IMG/VR virus record: IMGVR_UViG_3300042013_000067
Span: 128,001-192,000 of that record
Strand: one strand, 5' to 3'
From: a virus
Lineage: Duplodnaviria > Caudoviricetes
Length of the DNA: 64,000 nt
Made by a program: the position numbers and the translations under genes. Below, piece by piece: positions 3,470-47,298 of the stretch. The notes under the pieces are model-generated. The model worked only from the letters and a program-made list of their open reading frames with translations. It was not told where the DNA came from and did not search any database. Each line of letters opens with the position of its first letter. The first letter of the stretch is position 1.

Positions 3470-3489
3470 AGGGAGCCTTCGGGCTCCCT
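3470..3489 (+). terminator. UUCG hairpin between the paralogous genes
   Basis: AGGGAGCC-TTCG-GGCTCCCT with a short T tail. Confidence 0.6.
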
Positions 3490-3521
3490 GCTTTACCTAC
3501 CTTCCCTGTTAAGGAAAAGAA

Positions 3522-3977
3522 ATGGCTAAGATTAACCAGTACCAACAGTTCTTCCTGCTCGACAATACATACGTTGTCGAGTTGAACGACGATGCGGAAA
3601 TCCTCTGGGTGAAAGAGACCAAGGTGCTCGACGTGCCGCTTAAAGGTGGTAAGCGCACTGTCAGCAACTGGCGTAAACACGACGTCGAAGAAGTTGCTCT
3701 GCTGAGTGAGGGTGTGCGTGAGACGTACCGCATACTGCTATCGGCAGAGTGCGACACGATCGTGCCTGAAGCTGAGTATGAAGTGAAGTATAAGTTGTGG
3801 GGTGGTTACTACAACCATCGGTTGCAGAAGTACGCCAGTCACTGGGTGTATCATGCACAGGGTTCCATCAGCCATGGCGAACGTGTAGTGATCGCTAGGG
3901 ATGGTGAGACCTTGATCAACCACAGCAAGGGCATCGGGCAACTGTACCATGGTCTGATTGCAAGCCAGGCGGTATAG
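3522..3977 (+). CDS. Early hypothetical protein (paralog of 3034-3465)
   Basis: AAGGA RBS; shares VVELND..LWVKE, WRKHD, LL.AEC, L.KY..H.VYH, ERVV.A.D...LINHS.GIG.LY with the upstream ORF. Confidence 0.85.
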   Translation: MAKINQYQQFFLLDNTYVVELNDDAEILWVKETKVLDVPLKGGKRTVSNWRKHDVEEVALLSEGVRETYRILLSAECDTIVPEAEYEVKYKLWGGYYNHRLQKYASHWVYHAQGSISHGERVVIARDGETLINHSKGIGQLYHGLIASQAV

Positions 3978-22408: not shown

Positions 22409-22491
22409 GTCTTTGCTCCTGGAAAAGTATACCAGTCTACTAGACTGTATATAACGGAATATTTTAGGCACCTATATCATCGTCATGCATA

Positions 22492-35301: not shown

Positions 35302-38300
35302 ATGGCCGGCAAAAAGAAACTAGGTAACAAGGCTGGCTCGGGTCCAATGCTCTTAGGTGGGCTGGACCTTGATGACGTCGATAGTTTGCTCGACGACGGT
35401 GGTTCCTCGCAGTCCGGTAAACGAACCCCTACAGAGTCTATCCGTAAACTAGCGACCACCGCCTCAAGATCGATGCGTGATCGGGTTAACACCAAGACCG
35501 TTCTCGCTTCCTTTATTCGTACAGCACTGCCTGACGGCTATACACGTTTGCTCGGTCTCTATGACGAAACCAAACAAGGTATCGAATCGGTAGTCGACGG
35601 TGTTGAGGAAACTGAATTCGCTAGCTTAGAGAAACTGGCTGAGCGATTCGAGAATCAACTGCCTAAACTCAAAGGCAAGGTGTCGGATGCGGTTTATGAA
35701 CGCATCAAAGCCAAGATTGAAGACCGCAAGGAAGACTACAAACTACGTCGTCAAATCGACCAAGCACAAACAGCACGTACTCGTGGTGATTACGACGAGA
35801 AAAGTGAGAACCTTTCTGTCGATCAGATGTTCGACGAACTGCAGATGGCTGAGGATCAAAACGAGCTCAGCAAGGCTGCATCCGATGTCGAACACAATAA
35901 ATTAGATTACGATGTCAAGCGTGATGGCATCCGGGCGCGTTTGGACAAAACCCGCTTTGATGTGATGAACCGTCATCTCGGCATGATTGCCGATTCGACT
36001 CAGCGTAGCTCTGCTTACAACGACAGCGTAACCTACCAGTTCCAGAAGAAGTCTTTGGAACTGCAAATGCGTAGCTACTTGGCCATGCGGTCGATGGTTA
36101 AGCTGTCGAGTGAATCGCTGTTGTTGCAAAAGCAGGCTTATACCGCCCTCGTGCATAACACCGGTTTGCCGGAGTTCATGAAGGCTACTGAGGCTGAACG
36201 CACCAAGTGGTTTTTCGCAGAACAAGCGCGTAATCCATTCAGGCAGTTAGTCACTAGAACAGCGAGTGACGCGGTCAGCAACTTCTTACCTGGTCTGTTT
36301 AATAACGTTGGCAAGAAAGCCGCGGGTCTAGTACGCGGTGCGAGTCAGGTCGGTGAGGGTGGTATGGGCATGTTGCTCGCCCGACTGCTACGGGACCCTG
36401 CCGAGAACGGCGGTGCGATGCTGGGTGACGGGTTGGCTTCTCTGCTTCACTCAACTTTTATACCCATGGCTGCACGTAAAGCACGCCCGACTATCAAACG
36501 GGTGTCTGATAAGCTGACAGGTGGCGGCGACAGTCGTATCGCCTATGCCCTCGACAACATGGCCTCAATCTCACAGAACTTCGCAAACGACGCCAGTAAG
36601 TCTACCGGTGTGATGGGTAGACTGCAGGGTCTGGTGAAACTGTTTGCCCCGCAGTTCAGGCAAGATGACCTGATCAAAGACGGCACTTATCAAACCATTA
36701 ACCAGTCTGCCTCGTTCAACCAGATGACGCAGCGTTCTATCGTGGAGATCATTCCGGGTTATCTGTCCCGTATCCTCCAGGAAACCCGCATGATCCGTAC
36801 GGGTGACGACACCATCGGTCGTGAAGTTTACGACATCACCCGTGGACAATTCACTCAAGATAAGAAAGCCCAAGATAACTTGGGTAAACGAATCGTGGGT
36901 GTGGGTGCTCGACGCAGTATCACATGGTCGCTCAACAACACGGTTGAGGAGTTCGGTGCCGGTGATGGACAACTCTCGCCTGAAGCCAAACATGCCTTGG
37001 AAGAACGCTTACTGCGTGACGCCATGGAGGGTAAACACTTCGACCCTGTGGCCTACGTTAAAGCCAGTGGTTATGCACCGGGTACTGATCCTGCGGTACT
37101 GAATGAGCTTGAGAAGTTCTTTAAAAGACAGTTCAAGTTCGGCGAAGACGGTAAGCTGGGTAAGTCGGCTGCGAACTACGCCAAACGTCAGGAGTACTCA
37201 ACCCGCTTCAACGAACTACGTGACACAGTCCGTAGTCCGATCGCTGAGATCGAGCGTCTGTTGTCGTCGGGTAACCATACTGCGTTACGTGACTTGGGTA
37301 TCATCAAAACGGTTGAAGGTGAAGACCGGATCGATTACGGTGTACTGCGAGACATGTACCGTGACTTGGGTGACCCTAACGCTTCGGGTCCACTACCCAC
37401 CCCACCTAGCCCAACCAGTCCGTTGCTGACTAAGCTGCGTCAGCGGTTGCGCGAGGCTAGGGAAAGCGGTCGTAGCGGTATGCGTGCGGCTGGTGAAGGT
37501 GGTCGCACGCGTCTGCGTGAGGCTGGGGATAGGGTACGGGAAGGTGGTCGCCGCGGTATGCGTGGTGCTAGACGCATGCGTGATGCCGGACAGAATCTGG
37601 TTGATTCGGTTGATCTGCCGGACAGCGCTGTGGTACGGGCCGCGGTGAGTGCACAGGCTGATGCAGCCCGTGCCCATGTTGCTGCGGCTAAGGACCGTGT
37701 CCAAGACCTGATGATAGCCGGTCGTGACGGTGTAGTTATTAAAGCCGATGAAATCCTCAATGGTGGGTTGATCGATGCGACTACGCAGAAGGTCATCACT
37801 AAAGTAGAAGACATCAAAGGTGAAGTCATTGACCTCACCGGTCGAGTGCGGTTGACTCGGGCTGATGTAACTCAAGGTCTGGTGATGGCTAACGGCGTCC
37901 GACTGGATCTGCTCAAACACCTACCGACTAAGATCCCACCGAATGTACTCGCGATGCTGAATCAGCAACGCCTGTCGATCGGTAATCTCATCCGTAAAGA
38001 AGATGGGGTCGTGTCGCGGGTTAAAGACCTGTATCTGGAAGGGGCTAACGATCCGGTCATTAAGGCCGCTGGCATTCGTGCTGGTGAATACATCGACATG
38101 GCCAGTCAGAAGGTCATCGAGACGATCGATGACATCAGCGGTGCGGTCGCTCGGGTAGATCGTCCGGATGAGATCTTGTTCACGGCGCAGGAAGCAGCTA
38201 CTAAACTGATCGACAACACCGGCAAACGGTTCAAGTCGTCTAAGTTGCTACGCGGGTTGGCGGCAGCTACCGGTCATGGGTTTGGCGTCGCCGCAGGTCG

Positions 38301-41300
38301 GTTCAAGATCGGTATGGCGCTAATCCGTAAAGGTGGGATGCTCGTCAGTAAGCTGCTGAAAGAGGGCTTGGACGCTTACCTGCCGGGTAATTTGCAGCCG
38401 ATTCTACAGACGATCAAACTCAAACGTGGCGAGTATTACCACAGTGATGGTTCGGTTATCCAATCCTTCGACGACTTACGTGACGGTGTATACGCCGCCG
38501 ACGGGAATCTACTGGTTGACCCGGAAGACATCCCGCACCTGATCAACCGTGACGGCACCCAACACACAACCGCTAAACGCCGTGGCTTTATTCGTAAGCT
38601 GGGTAAGAAGCTGTTGATTGGCGCTCCTACTGCTATGCTCAAGGGCATTGGTAAGGTTTGGTGGAAAGGCACCAAAGCCTACTATAAAGGCATGGGTAAC
38701 ATGTTTGCCAAGAAGTTTGGCAGCACTGTGAAGAAGGCCGATGACTACAACAAAGCCGGGATGACTCCAACCGACGGTATCTTGGGTCAAATCTTGGGGG
38801 TGATCGATCGTCGTATGCCTAAGGAAGAGGCAAAGGACGGTAGCTGGCAGCAGAAGATGCAGGAGGCGGAAGCCAACGCGAAAGCCAAGCGGGAAGGCAA
38901 ACGCGGTAAGCCCCAAGATAAGTCGATGGCTGGTGGTGGTCTACTGGCAGGTCTGTCTAAACTGTTCGGGAAGAAAGGCGAGGAGGACGAGGAGTCCGGT
39001 GGTGACACCAACATCGATTTTGGTGGGGGTGAAGGAGGAGAGGATAAGAAGGGTAAGCGGGTTCGTAAGAAACCACGTGGTCGACTAGGTCGCGGTTGGG
39101 ACCGATTAGCTAAGACCAAGGTTGGACGTGGTGTAGGCCGCATGGGTGGTTCTGCGTTGATGCGTGCAGGTGCCGGTATGGGCGCACGGGTCGGTGGTTC
39201 TGCACTACTCAGCGGTGCTGCGTCCATGTTTGGTGGTTCTGCGTTGAGTGGTCTGGCCACAGGTGCCGCTTCGGTGGCAGGCAGTGGTCTTGCGATGGCG
39301 GGTACTGCGGCAGCCGCTGCGGGTACCGCGATTCTGAGTGTGTTGGCTTCGCCTGTCGTGCTCGGGGCTTTGGCCGTGGGCGGTGTAGCTGCAGGTGGTT
39401 ACTGGTTGTGGAACCGGTCAGGCAAAGTAAGCGGTGATTTCCGTGAGCTGCGTTTGATGCAGTACGGTATCGACTCCACTGGTGACAAACTCAAGATCCT
39501 CGAACTCGAAGCTTATCTGGAACAGTTCTCTGTAAAGGGCACTGAACCTAAACTCAACATCAACGGTACCGATCCGAGGAAAGTCTTCGAGATCCTCGAC
39601 ATCGACCCTAGTGACGCCGATGAAGTTATTCGGATGGCCACGTGGATCGACAAGCGCTTTAAGCCAGTGTTCTTTGCTTGGTTGAAGGCGATGCATCAGC
39701 TCACCCCTCACGGGACGCTGATCAACGAGCTCGACGACAAACTGCCAGATGCGGCGAAGTATGATTTCTTTACTATCGTCAAAACTGTACCGGTTGAAGT
39801 GTACCAGCAACTGGTGCACCCACTGGACTCCGATCCAATCGAAGTAACCCCAGCGGAAATCAATGCCAAAGTCACTGAGCTGATCGACGAATGGCGTGAT
39901 AAGGCTCCAGCTAAAGACGAACGCAAGACCGGTGATACCACTGGCGCGGTTCCTATCAAGACTCGTGGTGGCGAAGAGACTAAGGCGGCTGATGGTTCTA
40001 AACCTGAGGACAAGTCTGGTTTCTACAACGCACTGAAGACAGGTGCCATGGCACTCGTCCCAGGGCTGGCAGCTGGCTCTGCTATTGGTGGTTTGATTGC
40101 CAAGGCGAAAGAGGGTTGGGCTGGCGGTATCCTCAGTACACTGGGCAATGCCGCTAAGTTGGTGGCTACACCTGCGTTGCTGGGTGGTCTGGTGCTGAAG
40201 AGCGCTGTGTCGATGGCGGGTGTGTTTAAGGCTGGCAAGCTGACGACGCTTCAAGCGGTGCGTGTGCGAGCCTATGGCCGCATGCAGCTCGATGAGCGGA
40301 CGATCGCAGGTCTCTTTGATTCAGAAGCCAAAGTCTACGAACAAGTACGGTTCAGTTCCGACGGTCAAGCGTACTACAATGGTAACTTGGATACACTCAT
40401 TGCACAAATGGGTGAGATCTTTGCCGTAGACGTCACCGATCCGAGCAGCCGTAAGGCTCAAGAGTTCACCGCGTGGATTCTGCAACGGTTCATTCCAACT
40501 GCTCTGGCTTACTTTGCTGCGGTTAAGCAACAAGGCCAGTCGATTACTCCAAGTCGTGTAGAAACGGCGCTGAAGGACGACGTCAAGTTGTCTGTAGCGA
40601 ACGCCATCATGACAGCTACCTACGAACTGAATGGAGAGAACGTTTCGATTTGGAAGGCTAACACCTTCTTTAATAACGGAACGGCTGATCTGGGGGCACT
40701 GAAGGCTACGGCTGAACGTGAGATCCTAGTCCTCAAGGCAGCGGCCGATAAAGCTAAACTGTCTTCTCCGGGTACTTCGGTTAAGGAGCAGGAGAATCAA
40801 GAGAAATCCAAAGCCCGTACCACTGCTGAAAAGATTATGGACGGGGCATCGAAACTAGGTGCTTCCCTGAAAGAGTCGTTCTCGAACTTCGCTAGCGGAG
40901 TGAAGGATACGGTCGGTGGGGCTGTCACTAAGGTTAAGGACTTCTTTGGCTTTGGTGGGGGTGACTCTAAGAGCAGCACGGCAGCGCCTGCCAACACGGC
41001 ATACAGTGCGGCATATACTCCAGGTGGTACGCTGGAGCAGAAGGGTAGTACTTACTCGGCGTTTGCGGAAGGGAATGGTGGGGCTTGGAACAGCATCCCA
41101 CTGCCGAAGGCGAACAAGAGTCGTGATGCAGCGATGGAAACACTGCGTGCCATTCAGGCAATGACTGGGGTGGACGCAGAACTGCTGGCGACGTTCGCAT
41201 CGATGGAATCGAATTTCGACTACACCGTCAAAGCTCGCACTTCCTCGGCAACGGGTTGGTTCCAGTTCATCAACTCGACATGGGACGGCATGCTCAAGGC

Positions 41301-42252
41301 TCACGCTGCGAAGTATGGTATCCCACCGGACAATGGCGATCGTTATCTGCGTAAGGACCCTCGGATCAACGGCCTTATGGGTGCGGAGTTCCTTAAAGGT
41401 AACTACCAGATTCTGGCTAAAGCTTTGGGTCGTGCTCCAACAGACACTGATCTGTACTTTGCTCACTTCTTGGGCCCTGTTACAGCAGCTGGTTTCTTGA
41501 TGCGCGACCGTAACGCTATCGCAGCAAGCTTCTACCCAGCCCAAGCGGCAGCCAACCGTTCGATCTTCTACAAAACCACAGGGCAACCTCGTACGATCGG
41601 TGAGGTCTACGAGATCTTTGATGGTAAGGTTCGGTCACACCGTAAAGGCGGTGGTGGCAGTGATGTCGGTAAGTCTCCAATAGGTCAACCTACTGCTCAG
41701 GCGCAAGCCGATGAGAAGGCACAGGCCAGCGCGGTAACTGCTGACATGAAACCACCAGCGGACGCGATCAATGGTGAGGTGGGTACTCCAACCCCTCAAG
41801 GTAACCCCAATGATTCGCTGACGATGACGGCCGACAAAACAGCCGCTCCAATGCGGATGGGTGATCCATCGCAATCGACCAGCACTCCAGCAGCACCGGG
41901 TGGTGGTAGTTCAACGGTCGTAGGTTCCGGTCAGAATACCCCTGAACGGCAGGCTGCTTTGAATGATGCGATGCAGAAAGCCGCAGCGAGTGACAAGGCT
42001 GCTACAGAACAGAACCAACAGAAGCAGGCTCTGGCCTCTTCGTCGGTTAACTATCTGGAACAGCAGTTGAATACTCAGATTGAGATGCGGGATTTGCTGA
42101 AGACCATCGCAGTTCGACTCGGTACGCCAGTCGCTGCTGCGCCTGCCCCACAGGCGGCTCCAGCTCAAACCGGTAATGATATGGGTAAACAACAACCGTC
42201 AACTGAGCGACGTGCAGGCAACGCTCCAACGCCACTCTCGTTCAAGCGATAG
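35302..42252 (+). CDS. Tail tape-measure-like protein with C-terminal lytic transglycosylase (phiKZ gp181-like)
   Basis: 2316 aa; SLT motifs FASMESNF...SSATGWFQFINSTW...LYFAHFLG; Gly/Ala-rich hydrophobic segments. Confidence 0.9.
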   Translation: MAGKKKLGNKAGSGPMLLGGLDLDDVDSLLDDGGSSQSGKRTPTESIRKLATTASRSMRDRVNTKTVLASFIRTALPDGYTRLLGLYDETKQGIESVVDGVEETEFASLEKLAERFENQLPKLKGKVSDAVYERIKAKIEDRKEDYKLRRQIDQAQTARTRGDYDEKSENLSVDQMFDELQMAEDQNELSKAASDVEHNKLDYDVKRDGIRARLDKTRFDVMNRHLGMIADSTQRSSAYNDSVTYQFQKKSLELQMRSYLAMRSMVKLSSESLLLQKQAYTALVHNTGLPEFMKATEAERTKWFFAEQARNPFRQLVTRTASDAVSNFLPGLFNNVGKKAAGLVRGASQVGEGGMGMLLARLLRDPAENGGAMLGDGLASLLHSTFIPMAARKARPTIKRVSDKLTGGGDSRIAYALDNMASISQNFANDASKSTGVMGRLQGLVKLFAPQFRQDDLIKDGTYQTINQSASFNQMTQRSIVEIIPGYLSRILQETRMIRTGDDTIGREVYDITRGQFTQDKKAQDNLGKRIVGVGARRSITWSLNNTVEEFGAGDGQLSPEAKHALEERLLRDAMEGKHFDPVAYVKASGYAPGTDPAVLNELEKFFKRQFKFGEDGKLGKSAANYAKRQEYSTRFNELRDTVRSPIAEIERLLSSGNHTALRDLGIIKTVEGEDRIDYGVLRDMYRDLGDPNASGPLPTPPSPTSPLLTKLRQRLREARESGRSGMRAAGEGGRTRLREAGDRVREGGRRGMRGARRMRDAGQNLVDSVDLPDSAVVRAAVSAQADAARAHVAAAKDRVQDLMIAGRDGVVIKADEILNGGLIDATTQKVITKVEDIKGEVIDLTGRVRLTRADVTQGLVMANGVRLDLLKHLPTKIPPNVLAMLNQQRLSIGNLIRKEDGVVSRVKDLYLEGANDPVIKAAGIRAGEYIDMASQKVIETIDDISGAVARVDRPDEILFTAQEAATKLIDNTGKRFKSSKLLRGLAAATGHGFGVAAGRFKIGMALIRKGGMLVSKLLKEGLDAYLPGNLQPILQTIKLKRGEYYHSDGSVIQSFDDLRDGVYAADGNLLVDPEDIPHLINRDGTQHTTAKRRGFIRKLGKKLLIGAPTAMLKGIGKVWWKGTKAYYKGMGNMFAKKFGSTVKKADDYNKAGMTPTDGILGQILGVIDRRMPKEEAKDGSWQQKMQEAEANAKAKREGKRGKPQDKSMAGGGLLAGLSKLFGKKGEEDEESGGDTNIDFGGGEGGEDKKGKRVRKKPRGRLGRGWDRLAKTKVGRGVGRMGGSALMRAGAGMGARVGGSALLSGAASMFGGSALSGLATGAASVAGSGLAMAGTAAAAAGTAILSVLASPVVLGALAVGGVAAGGYWLWNRSGKVSGDFRELRLMQYGIDSTGDKLKILELEAYLEQFSVKGTEPKLNINGTDPRKVFEILDIDPSDADEVIRMATWIDKRFKPVFFAWLKAMHQLTPHGTLINELDDKLPDAAKYDFFTIVKTVPVEVYQQLVHPLDSDPIEVTPAEINAKVTELIDEWRDKAPAKDERKTGDTTGAVPIKTRGGEETKAADGSKPEDKSGFYNALKTGAMALVPGLAAGSAIGGLIAKAKEGWAGGILSTLGNAAKLVATPALLGGLVLKSAVSMAGVFKAGKLTTLQAVRVRAYGRMQLDERTIAGLFDSEAKVYEQVRFSSDGQAYYNGNLDTLIAQMGEIFAVDVTDPSSRKAQEFTAWILQRFIPTALAYFAAVKQQGQSITPSRVETALKDDVKLSVANAIMTATYELNGENVSIWKANTFFNNGTADLGALKATAEREILVLKAAADKAKLSSPGTSVKEQENQEKSKARTTAEKIMDGASKLGASLKESFSNFASGVKDTVGGAVTKVKDFFGFGGGDSKSSTAAPANTAYSAAYTPGGTLEQKGSTYSAFAEGNGGAWNSIPLPKANKSRDAAMETLRAIQAMTGVDAELLATFASMESNFDYTVKARTSSATGWFQFINSTWDGMLKAHAAKYGIPPDNGDRYLRKDPRINGLMGAEFLKGNYQILAKALGRAPTDTDLYFAHFLGPVTAAGFLMRDRNAIAASFYPAQAAANRSIFYKTTGQPRTIGEVYEIFDGKVRSHRKGGGGSDVGKSPIGQPTAQAQADEKAQASAVTADMKPPADAINGEVGTPTPQGNPNDSLTMTADKTAAPMRMGDPSQSTSTPAAPGGGSSTVVGSGQNTPERQAALNDAMQKAAASDKAATEQNQQKQALASSSVNYLEQQLNTQIEMRDLLKTIAVRLGTPVAAAPAPQAAPAQTGNDMGKQQPSTERRAGNAPTPLSFKR

Positions 42253-42256
42253 TATA

Positions 42257-42290
42257 AAGCCCTCCTCCAGTCGGAGGAGGGTTCTTTTTC
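42257..42290 (+). terminator. Terminator after the gp181-like gene
   Basis: CCCTCCTCC-AGTC-GGAGGAGGG-TTCTTTTT. Confidence 0.8.
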
Positions 42291-42305: not shown

Positions 42306-44276
42306 ATGGCCGCAATCGATCGTGGTGGCATCTGGTTACGCCACGCATTCCTTATTCCGACAGATAGCAGTGCGAAGTCTTATGGCCACGGTACCAAACG
42401 CCGTCACGCCACATCGGCTGCATTCAAGTTTACGAACACCTCGTTGGGTGGCAACTATGTCATCAACAACCCACCACAGTTTACTCGCTTCTGCGACATC
42501 CGACATCCGGGTCGTGGACGTACGAAAGAAAACTCCAAGTACGGTATGGGTCGCTACTACAGTGAAGCGATCGATGATACCAGAGACGAGATCCACGTTA
42601 CCGTTGGGGTACCGCGGTTTTCCAGCTGGACCAGCTTCTTTGCCAACTTCTATGACCGCCATGCAGCCCTGTTAGCAAACACCGGTCGGGCTACCGACGT
42701 ATGGTTCGAACTGGGTAATATTGGTGGCCACCTCGTGACACTGCCGTTCCAACCGATCATCATCGGGGTGACGGGTGTTAATCGGGTGATGAACTTCCTG
42801 AACAAGTCTCAACCTTCTAAGTGGTATTACTTCAAACCGACCATGCATGCTTATTGGTCTGCAGTAAATACCATCGCCAACGAATTCGCAATTGGCTTGG
42901 GGTTGATCCCTCGGGTCTTTGGTGAAGGCCAGAAGGAGATGGAAGATCCGGGTAATCGGGTAACAGAAGCTGACCGGGCGCGTTTCAACATGATGTTCCC
43001 TGACCTATTCCGTAAGGATGGGTCGATTGACATTATGGCCCTGTCGCTGCGAACCCAGCGGATGTCCAACGCGTCTAAAGACGAGCTCAACAAGATCAAT
43101 GCCCGTGCTTCCAGCATCGACCAGCTGCGTGCTGAAGTCGAACGCTACGCACAGAAGGCACCTGAGGATCCTAACCCTGGGGTCGATGCCCGCAAATACT
43201 TCCTTGACTACATCAAGAATGAGAAGCCTGGTAAAGACCTCACTGCTAACGAGTCGTTCAGTTCGTGGTCTGAGCTTAGTAACGTCTATGGCTTCATCCG
43301 TGCTGCACAAAACGACGGTAGTCAGTTCGTAACGTTCCGGGTTAACCATACCGGCACCGTATCGGAATCTTTCAGTAACCAGACTGAACAAGTCGGGGTT
43401 GCGTCTCAACTGAACACCAAGATTAAGGAAGGTCGTTCGGCCAGCTTTGATTACATGGGTGGTAACATCTCTGACGTTGTGGGTTCTGTGTTCACTGGAC
43501 TTAAGTCGGTTGCAGCAGGTGTTTTGAACTCGGTGAACGCCGGTGGTGTAGCAGTACTGACCGGTGCAGCGTTTGTGGATGTCCCTGAGATGTGGGCAGG
43601 TTCGTCGGCTAACCTACCCACGGCAGAATACACGATTCCATTGCCTTGTGCTTATGGTAACGTGATGTCCCGCTTCATCAACATGTACGTACCACTGGCC
43701 ATGATCCTGCCTTTGGGCCTACCGCTCTCAGCAGGCCGTAGTGCGTACACCTCTCCCTTTATCTGTCAGGTCTTCCAGAAAGGCCGTGTGCAGAAGCAAC
43801 TTGCTATGGTCGATACGATCACCATTACTCGCGGTACCGGTAATGTAGGTTGGAACGCTGAGAAGCAGATGCTGGGTTGTGAGGTATCCATCAGCTTTAA
43901 AGATTTGTCCAGCATTATGCACATCCCAATCAAAGGCGGTTTCGCTGATGGTACATGGTTAGACACAGCGGTGAAAGGTACCGCAGTGTTGGTCGGTGAG
44001 ACCATGGGAGGTGACGCTGGGGAAGCTGCTGCACACATGGCTACTAACAGTGCCGTGTGGGACGAGCAGAGCCTGTTTCAAGATTACGTTGCATCATTGA
44101 CATCACAGTCGTTTGCAGACACGTACTACGTAGGCAACAGGCTAAATCTGAATGTGACGCGTGCTATGCAGAGTTTCACCAACTGGCGTAGTCCGTCCAA
44201 CTTCCTGTCGTGGGCACTCGATGGGGAGGTAGCAAGGTCGCTATCTGCATTTGCACAATCCACCGATCGACTGTAA
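42306..44276 (+). CDS. Virion structural / baseplate protein (phiKZ gp182-like)
   Basis: [31 protein letters not shown]; position directly after the gp181-like gene. Confidence 0.75.
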
Positions 44277-44289
44277 TGGAGCATTGATC

Positions 44290-44535
44290 ATGAAACAAGC
44301 AATCCTGAAGTTCCTCCTGCGACAAGCCTTGACCTTGGTCATGACTGAACGCCGTAAAGGTACGTTGGCTATCGGCCTTGCTGAAGCCAGCCGCCAAGAA
44401 GGCGACAAGCCATTCACCCGTCGTGGTCGTGTGTATCGTTTCGTTAAGGAACATGCTCCGACTGACACCCCGAAGTTTTTGTTGGACTTGGGTACCGAGG
44501 CTGCACAAGCCTTGGACGAAATGTCCCGCAAATAA
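44290..44535 (+). CDS. 81-aa basic hypothetical protein
   Basis: GGAG RBS; followed by a terminator. Confidence 0.7.
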   Translation: MKQAILKFLLRQALTLVMTERRKGTLAIGLAEASRQEGDKPFTRRGRVYRFVKEHAPTDTPKFLLDLGTEAAQALDEMSRK

Positions 44536-44603
44536 AAACCCCTGAAGCGGAAGGTATGGGGAAACCCGTACCTCCGCTCTTTATGCCTTAAAAGGAATGT
44601 GTC

Positions 44604-45008
44604 ATGAGTGAACAGCTGCAATGGTTGGAAGAGAATGGACCCACCCTCTTAAAACCCAAGACCCTGAATTGGGATCGTGGACCGATCAACCCGGATTCTA
44701 ACGCAGCTCACACTTACGTGATCAGTGGCTTCGATCCGTCGAACAATCCTGAGGCACCGGCGGATACTCCAGATGAACTCTTCATCTATTTCCAGAACGG
44801 TGTGATGACTGAGGTCGGGTCTAACGGGGTTACCCCTCAGGTATTGCTCGAAGTGTTGATTGATCGTTACGAAGGTTTCCAACAAGGTCCTTTTGCGTGT
44901 GAAGAAAATGACCGGGCGCTTACTGGTATGCGTGAAGCCCTCCAAGCGATCAACGATCGTCAGGCCGAACGAGCTGAGCGTGGTGTGTTGAACACCATGC
45001 AGAAGTAA
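44604..45008 (+). CDS. tad1: Tad1-family anti-Thoeris signal sponge protein
   Basis: AHTYVI, FQNG....GSNGV..LLEVLIDRYEGFQQGPFACEEN.RAL....EAL..INDRQAERAERGV.NT matches the recalled Tad1 sequence pattern over its full length. Confidence 0.85.
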   Translation: MSEQLQWLEENGPTLLKPKTLNWDRGPINPDSNAAHTYVISGFDPSNNPEAPADTPDELFIYFQNGVMTEVGSNGVTPQVLLEVLIDRYEGFQQGPFACEENDRALTGMREALQAINDRQAERAERGVLNTMQK

Positions 45009-45040
45009 CCGTGATTACCTTGGATTCAAAAGAATCTTAG

Positions 45041-45051
45041 GTCTATATCAC
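45041..45051 (+). promoter_or_regulatory. Early-type promoter CTATATCAC
   Basis: One mismatch to TATATTAC; A-rich upstream; intergenic. Confidence 0.65.
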
Positions 45052-45489
45052 GGACATGGTAATCGGTAATGAACCCAGCCGTGACGCTGTCCAAGGGAAA
45101 CAAACTAAACTTTATCCCGCACGGACGAAGCCGGTTGATTGACTCCAGAATCAAGGACTAGACTCAATCTCCTTTGGATAGCCGATCTGTTAGGTTCATC
45201 GCCAATTTACACCGAGGCATTGCACATGCATCTGAAAGCTTTAATTGCTTCTAACACACGACGCTTCTCTTGGGCGGTCTGTATGGACCGTCAGCTTGGT
45301 GACGATGCTCTAGGAGTCGCCATGGATCTGTTCCCTAGCTGGGTACGATTAGAAGACTCTGCGCAGAATGAAGTGCTGCATGGCAACATCGCAATGGCTC
45401 ACTGGTTCGATGAACAGCAAGTCCCGTTAATCGCTGAAGTGTTGACGAACGAACCCCACCTTCTTACTGACCCACAAGGTACTAATGTC

Positions 45490-45915
45490 ATGACTGACAA
45501 GAACTCTGTTGCAAAATCGATTGCCTATGCTGACAAGCACGATCTCTGGGGCAAGATCACTCGAAACGAGAATGGCACCATCGCCGCCACCGAAGACTTT
45601 GTTGAATCGACGGCTGCGCTCGACGCTGGCATAACCATGGACCAAGTGAAGAAATTCCAGAAGGCCGTTGGCGAATTGATTCCAGCGGCTATCTACGTCG
45701 GTGGCCAACTCGCGGGCGAAGGTTTCAAGGCAGATCCAAACCTGACCGAAACCGGTTTCAACTTCAACATCGGCGGCACTCAGAAAGTGTCGGCGCTGTA
45801 TAACCGCGATAGCAAAGACCACGTGGTCGTTGTTGTCGAAACCACACACCGCAGCGCGGAGTTCCAACGTGTGGTCACCAACTTGAATTCGATGTTCGAC
45901 GACATCAATTCTTAA
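45490..45915 (+). CDS. Hypothetical protein (may have an in-frame upstream extension)
   Basis: CAAGGT RBS and strongly biased codons from MTDKNS; the frame stays open upstream to 45139. Confidence 0.75.
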   Translation: MTDKNSVAKSIAYADKHDLWGKITRNENGTIAATEDFVESTAALDAGITMDQVKKFQKAVGELIPAAIYVGGQLAGEGFKADPNLTETGFNFNIGGTQKVSALYNRDSKDHVVVVVETTHRSAEFQRVVTNLNSMFDDINS

Positions 45916-46002
45916 GCTGGTCGTTTTACCGTGGTAGAAGAAGGGACCCGCGGGTCCCTTCTATTATTCTTTTTTCACCAACCCTCACTATAAGGGAATC
46001 GC

Positions 46003-47298
46003 ATGTCTGACGTTAAACTGGGTCACCTGATCGCTATCGAAGGCAACAATGGCGTGGGTAAGTCCACGCAAATCCAGCTGATCGCTGAGCGTCTGCGCGC
46101 TGCTGGTCACGACGTAGTCCTCGTACAGGAACCAGGTAGCTCTGATTTGGGTGTTCACCTGCGCAAGATCCTCAAGGACCAGCGTGAGATCAAACTGAAC
46201 TACACCACTGAACTGCTGCTGTTCGGCGCACAGCGCGACGACATGTACCGCAAGGTCATCCGTCCGGCGCTGGATGCTGGCAAGGTGGTTCTGGCTGACC
46301 GCAGCTACTTCTCTACCTATGCCTTCCAGGTGCATCCATTCATGGAGCAGAACCAACTGGTCCTGCAACTGTTCAACCTGATGACCAGCATCAACGTCAG
46401 TCACTTGGGCAACACACCGGTGATCGTGGTTAACATCGCCATGGAAGAAGCCGCGCGTCTGGAGCGTCTGGCTGGTATGGCGAAGCGTGAAGAAGACGCG
46501 TTCGAAGAACTACCGGCCGAGATTCTGGCCAAGGTCAACGAAGGCTACCAACTGCTGGAACGTCAGCCGGGCGTCACTACGTTCGATGGCACCCTGCCGA
46601 AAGATGACCTGGCCGATATGATCTTCGATCAGATCCAGGTCTGCATGAACCAGCGTGTGCAAGAAGATGCAATCATGCGTGAGCAGGCTGCTGCCGCGGC
46701 GAATGCGCCAGAGCCAGAAGTTGATGCGGAAAACACAGCTGAGCCAGTTGAGCCGGTTATGACCTTGGCTGCTTTGGAAGCTGAGATCCTCGCGGCGACG
46801 CAGCACCACGTCGAGCAACTGACCGGTATGTACGGCGGTAACTTCGATGAACATCGTGCTGAGTTCGATGCCAAGGTCGAACTGCTGCACAAGTGGATCA
46901 AAATGCACATCGCTGAACTGGCGGCCAAGCGTCCTGACGGCATCCCACAAATGGAAGGCCAACAGCGTGCTATGCAAATCACCGGTAACATCGGCACCAT
47001 GCTGGGCGGCGTCATGACCCTGATGAACATCGGTGACATGGTTGCGGCTCAAGAAGCAGGTGAAGGTCAAGCGGCCCCTACCGAAGAAGCTGAATCCGAA
47101 GCGTCGCAAATGGCCAACGAAGCTTCCGGCTATGCTCGCGGTGAAACTCCGGTAATGCAACACGTCGACGAACTGGGTCTGGTTGATGGTGAGTCAGGTC
47201 TGGAAATGCGTGGTGGTTATACTGGCGGTGTGCAGTGCGACGAAGCCGGCTTCAAATCTGAAGGCGTGGAAGGTCGTAACGAAGCACCAGGCCAGTAA
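46003..47298 (+). CDS. tmk: Thymidylate kinase with long C-terminal extension
   Basis: IAIEGNNGVGKST P-loop, EPG, ELLLFGAQR, VLADRSYFSTYAFQ; AAGGGA RBS. Confidence 0.92.
   Translation: MSDVKLGHLIAIEGNNGVGKSTQIQLIAERLRAAGHDVVLVQEPGSSDLGVHLRKILKDQREIKLNYTTELLLFGAQRDDMYRKVIRPALDAGKVVLADRSYFSTYAFQVHPFMEQNQLVLQLFNLMTSINVSHLGNTPVIVVNIAMEEAARLERLAGMAKREEDAFEELPAEILAKVNEGYQLLERQPGVTTFDGTLPKDDLADMIFDQIQVCMNQRVQEDAIMREQAAAAANAPEPEVDAENTAEPVEPVMTLAALEAEILAATQHHVEQLTGMYGGNFDEHRAEFDAKVELLHKWIKMHIAELAAKRPDGIPQMEGQQRAMQITGNIGTMLGGVMTLMNIGDMVAAQEAGEGQAAPTEEAESEASQMANEASGYARGETPVMQHVDELGLVDGESGLEMRGGYTGGVQCDEAGFKSEGVEGRNEAPGQ

Follow-up and report, generated by a model that had tools for sequence, protein, structure and literature searches.

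The question that this locus raises is whether a small gene of a jumbo phage encodes a Tad1-family sponge for immune signals, as an earlier note made from the letters alone had proposed, and, if so, which signals its product would bind and when and by which route it would be supplied to the infected cell. The gene lies in the window, i.e. the whole stretch of 64,000 nucleotides that was analysed, which corresponds to bases 128001-192000 of a virus record of 283,622 bp with direct terminal repeats. From our point of view, the first part can be answered plainly, as the open reading frame at 44604-45008 (Table 1) encodes a genuine member of the Tad1 family. For the remainder, we consider it very probable that the product is a cytoplasmic sponge, orthologous to gp184 of phage phiKZ, that would be made after infection and would bind gcADPR with or without cyclic dinucleotides.

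Table 1. Features of the Tad1 locus and its neighbourhood (window coordinates).
Feature	Position	Strand	Remarks
2316-aa ORF, phiKZ gp181-like tail lysin/cell-puncturing position	35302..42252	+	opens the conserved block
phiKZ gp182 orthologue, 656 aa	42306..44276	+	upstream synteny anchor; 60% identical to phiKZ gp182, 90% to Noxifer_198; phrog_3181
Small ORF, Noxifer_199 orthologue	44251..44535	+	94 aa; about 80 aa from an internal Met
Stem-loop between small ORF and Tad1	44546..44578	+	dG -26.5 kcal/mol, z -4.19, 0 of 200 shuffles as stable
TATG, phiKZ late (nvRNAP) promoter motif	44582..44585	+	18 nt before the Tad1 start codon
Ribosome-binding site AAGGA of Tad1	44592-44596	+	after TATG
Tad1-family sponge gene, short form (predicted)	44604..45008	+	134 aa, ATG start
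Pocket codon F92	44877-44879	+	
Codon of Glu100	44901-44903	+	trinucleotide-site Arg position
Pocket codon N102	44907-44909	+	
Pocket codon R119	44958-44960	+	
Pocket codon R123	44970-44972	+	
TATATCAC, core of phiKZ-type early-promoter-like motif	45044..45051	+	3' of the Tad1 stop, 5' of the next ORF
Downstream ORF, Noxifer_201 orthologue	45139..45915	+	C-terminal half related to phiKZ gp186
Thymidylate kinase (phiKZ gp188)	46003..47298	+	downstream synteny anchor

The reading frame spans only 138 codons from stop to stop, so that a longer product would be impossible without a frameshift. All elements of the Tad1 pattern that the earlier note had listed are found in the translation, namely HTYVI (residues 36-40), FQNG (63-66), GSNGV (72-76), LLEVLIDRYEGFQQGPF (81-97), EN..AL...EAL (101-113) and N.R...R..R.V..T (117-131), and the full-length similarity that it had described lies far above chance in comparisons with single sequences as well as with a profile. 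A phmmer search of all PDB chain sequences returned seven significant matches, every one of them Tad1-related. They are led by phiKZ gp184 (8Y6V chain I, E 1.6e-22), in which chain residues 114-226 align with residues 20-131 of the window protein at 43% identity over the 112-residue Tad1 domain, and the others are the crystal chains of CbTad1 from Clostridium botulinum (7UAV/7UAW/8SMD, 8KBE-H; E 6.4e-12) and of CmTad1 from Clostridioides mangenotii (8KBB-D; E 4e-10). The profile A1, built from 75 short relatives of the window protein, matched CbTad1 with an E value of 1.6e-29 and CmTad1 with 6.7e-26, in both cases over the full length and with profile positions 8-131 of 131 covered.

Among the PHROGs, the protein matched phrog_2428 over its full length (E 5.5e-28), a family annotated as function unknown. 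At least a dozen related contigs carry a homologue, and a search of 1.84 billion cluster representatives yielded 2,911 related clusters at E <=1e-3; measured by such homology, the Tad1-related family is very large. A second copy or a long Tad1 paralogue was not found elsewhere in the genome. Neither Pfam-A (hmmscan) nor NCBIfam gave a match for the window protein, nor did a search of the whole genome with PF24729.2; PF24729 (Acb2_Tad1_hairpin) has a curated cut-off of 27 bits, and its version PF24729.3 is assigned to 11 of 12 close homologues in precomputed annotation, with the grade 'weak' on homologue P0014. Since the evidence from the PDB, PHROG and fold comparisons is strong, these nulls are treated as limits of the respective models.

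An AlphaFold2 model computed from the alignment of the 75 sequences (mean pLDDT 91.2) consists of an N-terminal antiparallel sheet (strands 22-25, 37-41 and 58-63) followed by two long C-terminal helices (78-94 and 100-125), with an extra N-terminal helix at residues 3-11. In a Foldseek comparison with the PDB, Tad1 chains make up the entire top 20 (E 6e-9 to 1e-6, probability 1.00), with TM values of 0.71 by query and 0.77 by target over 124 aligned columns, and the first match thereafter reaches only E 0.04. The earlier note had proposed comparisons with Tad1 by profile and by structure, and both bear out its assignment. Measured against CbTad1, which is encoded by a Clostridium botulinum prophage, the protein is of similar length (134 versus 124 aa) and 35% identical in the Foldseek alignment. 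The two differ at the N-terminus, which is canonical in CbTad1 and provides Q8 and L13, whereas the first 20 residues of the window protein form a lineage-specific helix.

The protein is further predicted to form a homodimer, with an ipSAE of 0.88 against 0.00 for the best control; the mark applied to this score is attained by 20 of 30 proteins whose solved structure is a pair and by 1 of 23 whose solved structure is a single chain. At least 85% of the contacts agree between runs, and the pLDDT of the partner is at least 80. Because Tad1 dimers have already been solved, the score is no independent proof of the predicted dimer and may reflect likeness only. CbTad1 and CmTad1 assemble into hexamers that are trimers of dimers, and the hexamer interface of CmTad1 includes M102 and W103 (PMC10680739). 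In the HMMER alignment, this Met-Trp pair of both proteins is replaced by Gln114-Ala115, so that the protein may assemble in a way other than that of the solved hexamers, and the hexamer is perhaps not conserved in this Tad1 subfamily.

With regard to the ligand, residues F82, N92, R109 and R113 of CbTad1 contact gcADPR as well as 2',3'-cGAMP (PMC10680739), and these are the same four contacts that the earlier note had named. Within the stretch of the HMMER alignment that has no gaps, where the chain numbering equals the numbering of the paper plus one, they correspond to F92, N102, R119 and R123 of the window protein and are thus all conserved. N102 and R119 are found in every one of the 75 relatives, while R123 is present in 72 and F92 in 64. 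As such, we infer that the pocket for gcADPR and cyclic dinucleotides is intact.

The trinucleotide site has to be judged separately. It is a property of most, not all, Tad1 members, and in CbTad1 it involves R90 and T97 (R88 and T95 in CmTad1), which contact the phosphates of cyclic trinucleotides at the interface of the trimer of dimers (PMC10680739). T97 is conserved as Thr107, whereas R90, a contact of the cA3/cAAG phosphate and of the hexamer, is replaced by Glu100. At this position, 28 of the 75 relatives carry Glu and only nine carry Arg, and phiKZ gp184 has a Glu there, too (FACEEN). This pattern suggests that the trinucleotide site is not conserved in this subfamily, and because the phosphate-holding Arg is substituted, binding of cA3 or cAAG becomes doubtful and is probably absent in the window protein. 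The possibility that the protein also captures CBASS ligands hence may hold for the cyclic dinucleotides, for which the pocket residues are kept, but hardly for the trinucleotides.

The genome background is equally informative. The DNA of the window is about 77% identical to that of Pseudomonas phage Noxifer (Chimalliviridae, Noxifervirus), its nearest relative, and tblastn searches with phiKZ proteins identified chimallin ChmA (38% identity over 601 aa, E 9e-109), PhuZ (34%, E 5e-38) and the beta subunit of nvRNAP (48%, E 2e-134). Because the genome encodes these three proteins it is, by homology, that of a Noxifer-like Pseudomonas chimallivirus, which supports the earlier description of a nucleus-forming jumbo phage. 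The idea that the gene resembles an acquired module, on the other hand, had to be abandoned. Its neighbourhood reads gp181-position ORF, terminator, gp182 orthologue, small ORF, Tad1, gp186-related ORF and thymidylate kinase, and the order in phiKZ is gp181-gp182-gp183-gp184-...-gp188, the last being thymidylate kinase. The same slot is occupied by Tad1 in PhiPA3 (gp217), 201phi2-1 (gp280, which was detected by mass spectrometry), Viktualia and Noxifer (gene 200), and also in two uncultured jumbo-phage contigs whose proteins are 35-44% identical (P0031, on a contig of 265.7 kb, and P0033). Since the gene occupies the conserved slot of phiKZ gp184 it is, judged by gene order, an inherited positional orthologue of the latter. 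In phage OBP, a Tad1 homologue of 108 aa is located elsewhere (3474-3800, between the chimallin/nvRNAP-beta genes and an RNA ligase gene), so that the slot is not universal among chimalliviruses. As a minor observation, the PHROG match of the neighbouring ORF at 45139-45915 (258 aa) is confined to residues 124-258, and the homologue of this ORF in Noxifer is annotated with 228 aa.

The direct orthologue in Noxifer, gp200 (ARV77369.1, annotated as hypothetical protein), is likewise 134 aa long and has the same flanking genes. It is 62% identical to the window protein, compared with 90% for the neighbouring gp182 orthologue, and the dN/dS of the Tad1 gene between the two phages is 0.16-0.23; this combination of fast divergence and low dN/dS fits a fast-evolving counter-defence gene that would be under constraint. 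In an unrooted tree of the domain (132 columns), the short proteins of the Noxifer type form the starred clade, which is sister to a group containing the long chimallivirus forms with a joint SH-aLRT of 94, although the resolution of this tree is limited. Tad1 is thus confirmed as a stably inherited component of the conserved virion-gene block of Pseudomonas chimalliviruses and not as a peculiarity of phiKZ, and Noxifer_200, listed as 'hypothetical protein', can now be annotated as Tad1 together with its relatives from uncultured phages.

For phiKZ gp184 itself, a capsid study modelled it as a minor constituent of the inner vertex-binding complex that is cleaved by the head protease and of which large parts are unresolved (PMC11297242). 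Its publication as Tad1 is credited by PMC12676376 and PMC13282480 to Li et al. (2024, Nature 635:719), and it appears in a recent preprint as 'Thoeris anti-defense protein 1 (Tad1, gp184)' and as non-essential; according to the same preprint, its N-terminus is wedged in the capsid and the protease frees the C-terminal part, which is then injected (bioRxiv 10.1101/2025.11.23.690004). gp184 is reported to block CBASS and Thoeris via sequestration. The notion of a sponge that covers the gap in the protection by the phage nucleus is therefore already published for phiKZ gp184, of which the window gene is the orthologue.

What is new is the contrast between a long and a short form in one orthologous slot, the long one being packaged and injected in phiKZ. 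The two proteins share the slot between gp182 and thymidylate kinase, the chimallivirus background, the pocket residues and the Glu at the trinucleotide site. However, gp184 has 230 aa with an SLE-14 motif, an acidic linker and a capsid wedge, whereas the window protein has 134 aa and lacks all of these. As it is devoid of the packaging parts of gp184, its delivery and timing should differ. In the alignment, an N-terminal extension of roughly 100 residues is absent from the window protein. The N-terminus of the long forms (189-230 aa) is a leader L-x-W-(L/A)-x-(S/G)-L-E followed by the acidic linker and, in phiKZ, also by a beta-rich stretch. The head protease follows the rule S/A/G-X-E in phiKZ and S/A/G/T-X-E in 201phi2-1 (PMC5694885), and both S-L-E and G-L-E of the long forms satisfy the phiKZ-like rule. 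The window protein and its relatives of 134-143 aa carry a related N-terminal helix, M-S-E-x-L-x-W-L-E-E-N-G, in which the motif W-L-E violates the S/A/G-X-E rule; the sole S/A/G-X-E triplet of the window protein is ACE-100 within a core helix. Furthermore, no gp184 homologue is shown in the capsid of Goslar, another chimallivirus. We infer that the gp184 route of packaging is not used by the Noxifer-type protein.

The leader L-x-W-(L/A)...L-E (residues 1-12, window 44604-44640) is common to short and long chimallivirus Tad1s and is missing from other Tad1s. In the short forms, it could represent a vestigial or an alternative capsid-targeting signal. The 94-aa ORF upstream was considered as a detached N-terminus of gp184 and rejected, as it matches Noxifer_199 only and resembles neither gp183 nor the N-terminus of gp184 nor the neighbours in PhiPA3 and 201phi2-1.

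The regulatory features bear on the question of timing. According to the earlier note, the gene sits between its own upstream terminator and an early promoter. The hairpin upstream of the gene is real and stable, and its pairing is kept in Noxifer despite changes in the stem. It is terminator-like, but its U tract is weak (CUUUAU), and with fewer than five T it was not called in a terminator scan. Because of this weak U tract, the hairpin may act as a partial terminator or may shield the transcript that ends upstream of Tad1. The block 44581-44602, which comprises TTTATG and the ribosome-binding site, is identical in Noxifer. TATG, with the G as +1, is a core that late promoters of phiKZ require but that does not suffice by itself (PMC4666361), and we regard its occurrence before Tad1 as a candidate late-type promoter, bearing in mind that four bases are a weak signal.

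The early-promoter-like motif is equally real but lies beyond the stop codon, where it would serve the next gene and not Tad1. Across the genome, TATATNAC occurs at 18 sites on the plus strand versus two on the minus strand; the sites are nearly always intergenic with shared flanks, 20-130 nt before an ORF, and one of them precedes the chimallin gene. The motif has the form (A/T-rich)...c-TATAT(C/T)AC-n5-tG, with window sites at 22448, 45044 and 47319, and the set fits the early-promoter consensus of phiKZ and 201phi2-1 with a T to C change at one position (PMC7058600). The copy at 45044-45051 is conserved in Noxifer, as are the upstream hairpin, TATG and the ribosome-binding site, and owing to its position downstream of the Tad1 stop it says nothing about the timing of Tad1 expression. 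Between 22448 and 45044 there is no early-type motif in the window, so that Tad1 probably shares the transcript, or at least the mode of transcription, of the virion genes next to it. A scan for sigma-70 promoters returned four sites versus 3.5 expected and is therefore uninformative.

Further structural elements were observed around the gene. Two strong intrinsic-terminator-like hairpins with T tracts at 42258-42283, after the 2316-aa gp181-like gene, and at 45939-45962, before thymidylate kinase, bracket the block of gp182- to gp186-like genes. The leader that follows the early-type promoter (45005-45140) is predicted to be strongly structured (dG -41.2, z -3.3), and most of it is kept in Noxifer.

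Taken together, the reading that we consider very probable would work as follows. The protein would act as a cytoplasmic homodimer whose pocket, lined by F92, N102, R119 and R123, would sequester the TIR signal of Thoeris (1''-3' or 1''-2' gcADPR) and possibly the cyclic dinucleotides of CBASS, such that a ThsA-type NADase or a CBASS Cap effector would stay off and abortive infection would be blocked. In this way, the sponge would handle a defence against which the phage nucleus offers no protection. Since the protease-cleaved capsid-wedge extension of gp184 is absent, the protein would most likely be synthesised after infection, probably from a middle- or late-type transcript, and not be carried in the virion and injected.

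It is also conceivable, though improbable, that the protein is a Tad1-fold sponge with shifted specificity, directed mainly at CBASS cyclic dinucleotides or at another ADPR-derived signal, such as His-ADPR or N7-cADPR, and less at the gcADPR of type I Thoeris. CbTad1 and CmTad1 already differ with respect to cyclic dinucleotides (PMC10680739), sponge families show wide functional plasticity (PMC12393519), and the contacts of CbTad1 to the second base (loops and the N-terminal Q8 and L13) cannot be aligned in the window protein. What weighs against such a shift is the conservation of all four gcADPR-binding residues, together with the finding that Tad1 members in the survey inhibited type I Thoeris and CBASS (PMC12393519). 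A point against the sponge reading that we prefer is that, in that survey, roughly one in four of the tested sponge homologues inhibited none of seven systems (PMC12393519). The conserved pocket, along with a dN/dS of about 0.2, the intact frame and the spread of homologues over related contigs, also speaks against a structural or otherwise non-sponge protein in which only the Tad1 fold persists, or a gp184 remnant that is decaying. We regard this as barely conceivable, even though several Bacillus phage homologues are annotated as 'putative structural protein' and the first description of gp184 was that of a minor capsid protein (PMC11297242), as the part of gp184 that is wedged in the capsid is the N-terminus, which the window protein lacks.

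The same absence bears on a third possibility, namely that the protein is packaged and injected like gp184 with M-S-E-x-L-x-W-L-E as targeting signal. The N-terminal L-x-W-(L/A)...L-E is indeed shared with the long forms and not with Tad1s outside the chimalliviruses, the gene lies within the virion-gene block with no early-type promoter before it, and phiKZ gp93, which is likewise injected, undergoes cleavage at SLE-13 (PMC5694885), a position close to that of the motif in gp184. However, W-L-E does not fit the protease rule, neither the acidic linker nor the beta-rich wedge is present, with the reading as a wedge resting on the part of gp184 described in the capsid, and the Goslar capsid argues in the same direction. 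As such, we consider packaging unlikely and maintain that the sponge would be synthesised after infection. An apparent lack of an early promoter would then be a conspicuous trait for a counter-defence gene whose product is presumably not pre-packaged.

One could speculate that the short Tad1 is ancestral in this slot, that the lineage of phiKZ, PhiPA3 and 201phi2-1 later fused a protease-cleaved capsid-wedge leader to it, and that phages of the Noxifer type depend on a dimeric post-infection sponge with specificity for gcADPR and cyclic dinucleotides and without the trinucleotide site. This scenario is tentative, and we consider it less likely than not. If true, the two forms would provide a natural pair for asking whether pre-loading of the virion with a sponge matters against signal-based immunity. 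The comparison of long and short forms could show the value of early sponge delivery against Thoeris and CBASS, and also whether the loss of the Arg at the trinucleotide site narrows the range of defences that are countered.

Compared with other sponges, the protein resembles Tad2, Acb2 and Acb4 as a predicted small homo-oligomer that would sequester an immune nucleotide signal; the folds of these, however, are unrelated to that of Tad1, and no match to Tad2, Acb2 or Acb4 was obtained in the sequence and structure searches with the window protein. Lastly, in many metagenome proteins of 180-455 aa the Tad1 domain is located at the C-terminus (e.g. P0062 with 352, P0108 with 455 and P0146 with 442 aa). 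N-terminal fusions to Tad1, possibly serving as packaging or anchoring modules, may hence be common beyond phiKZ.
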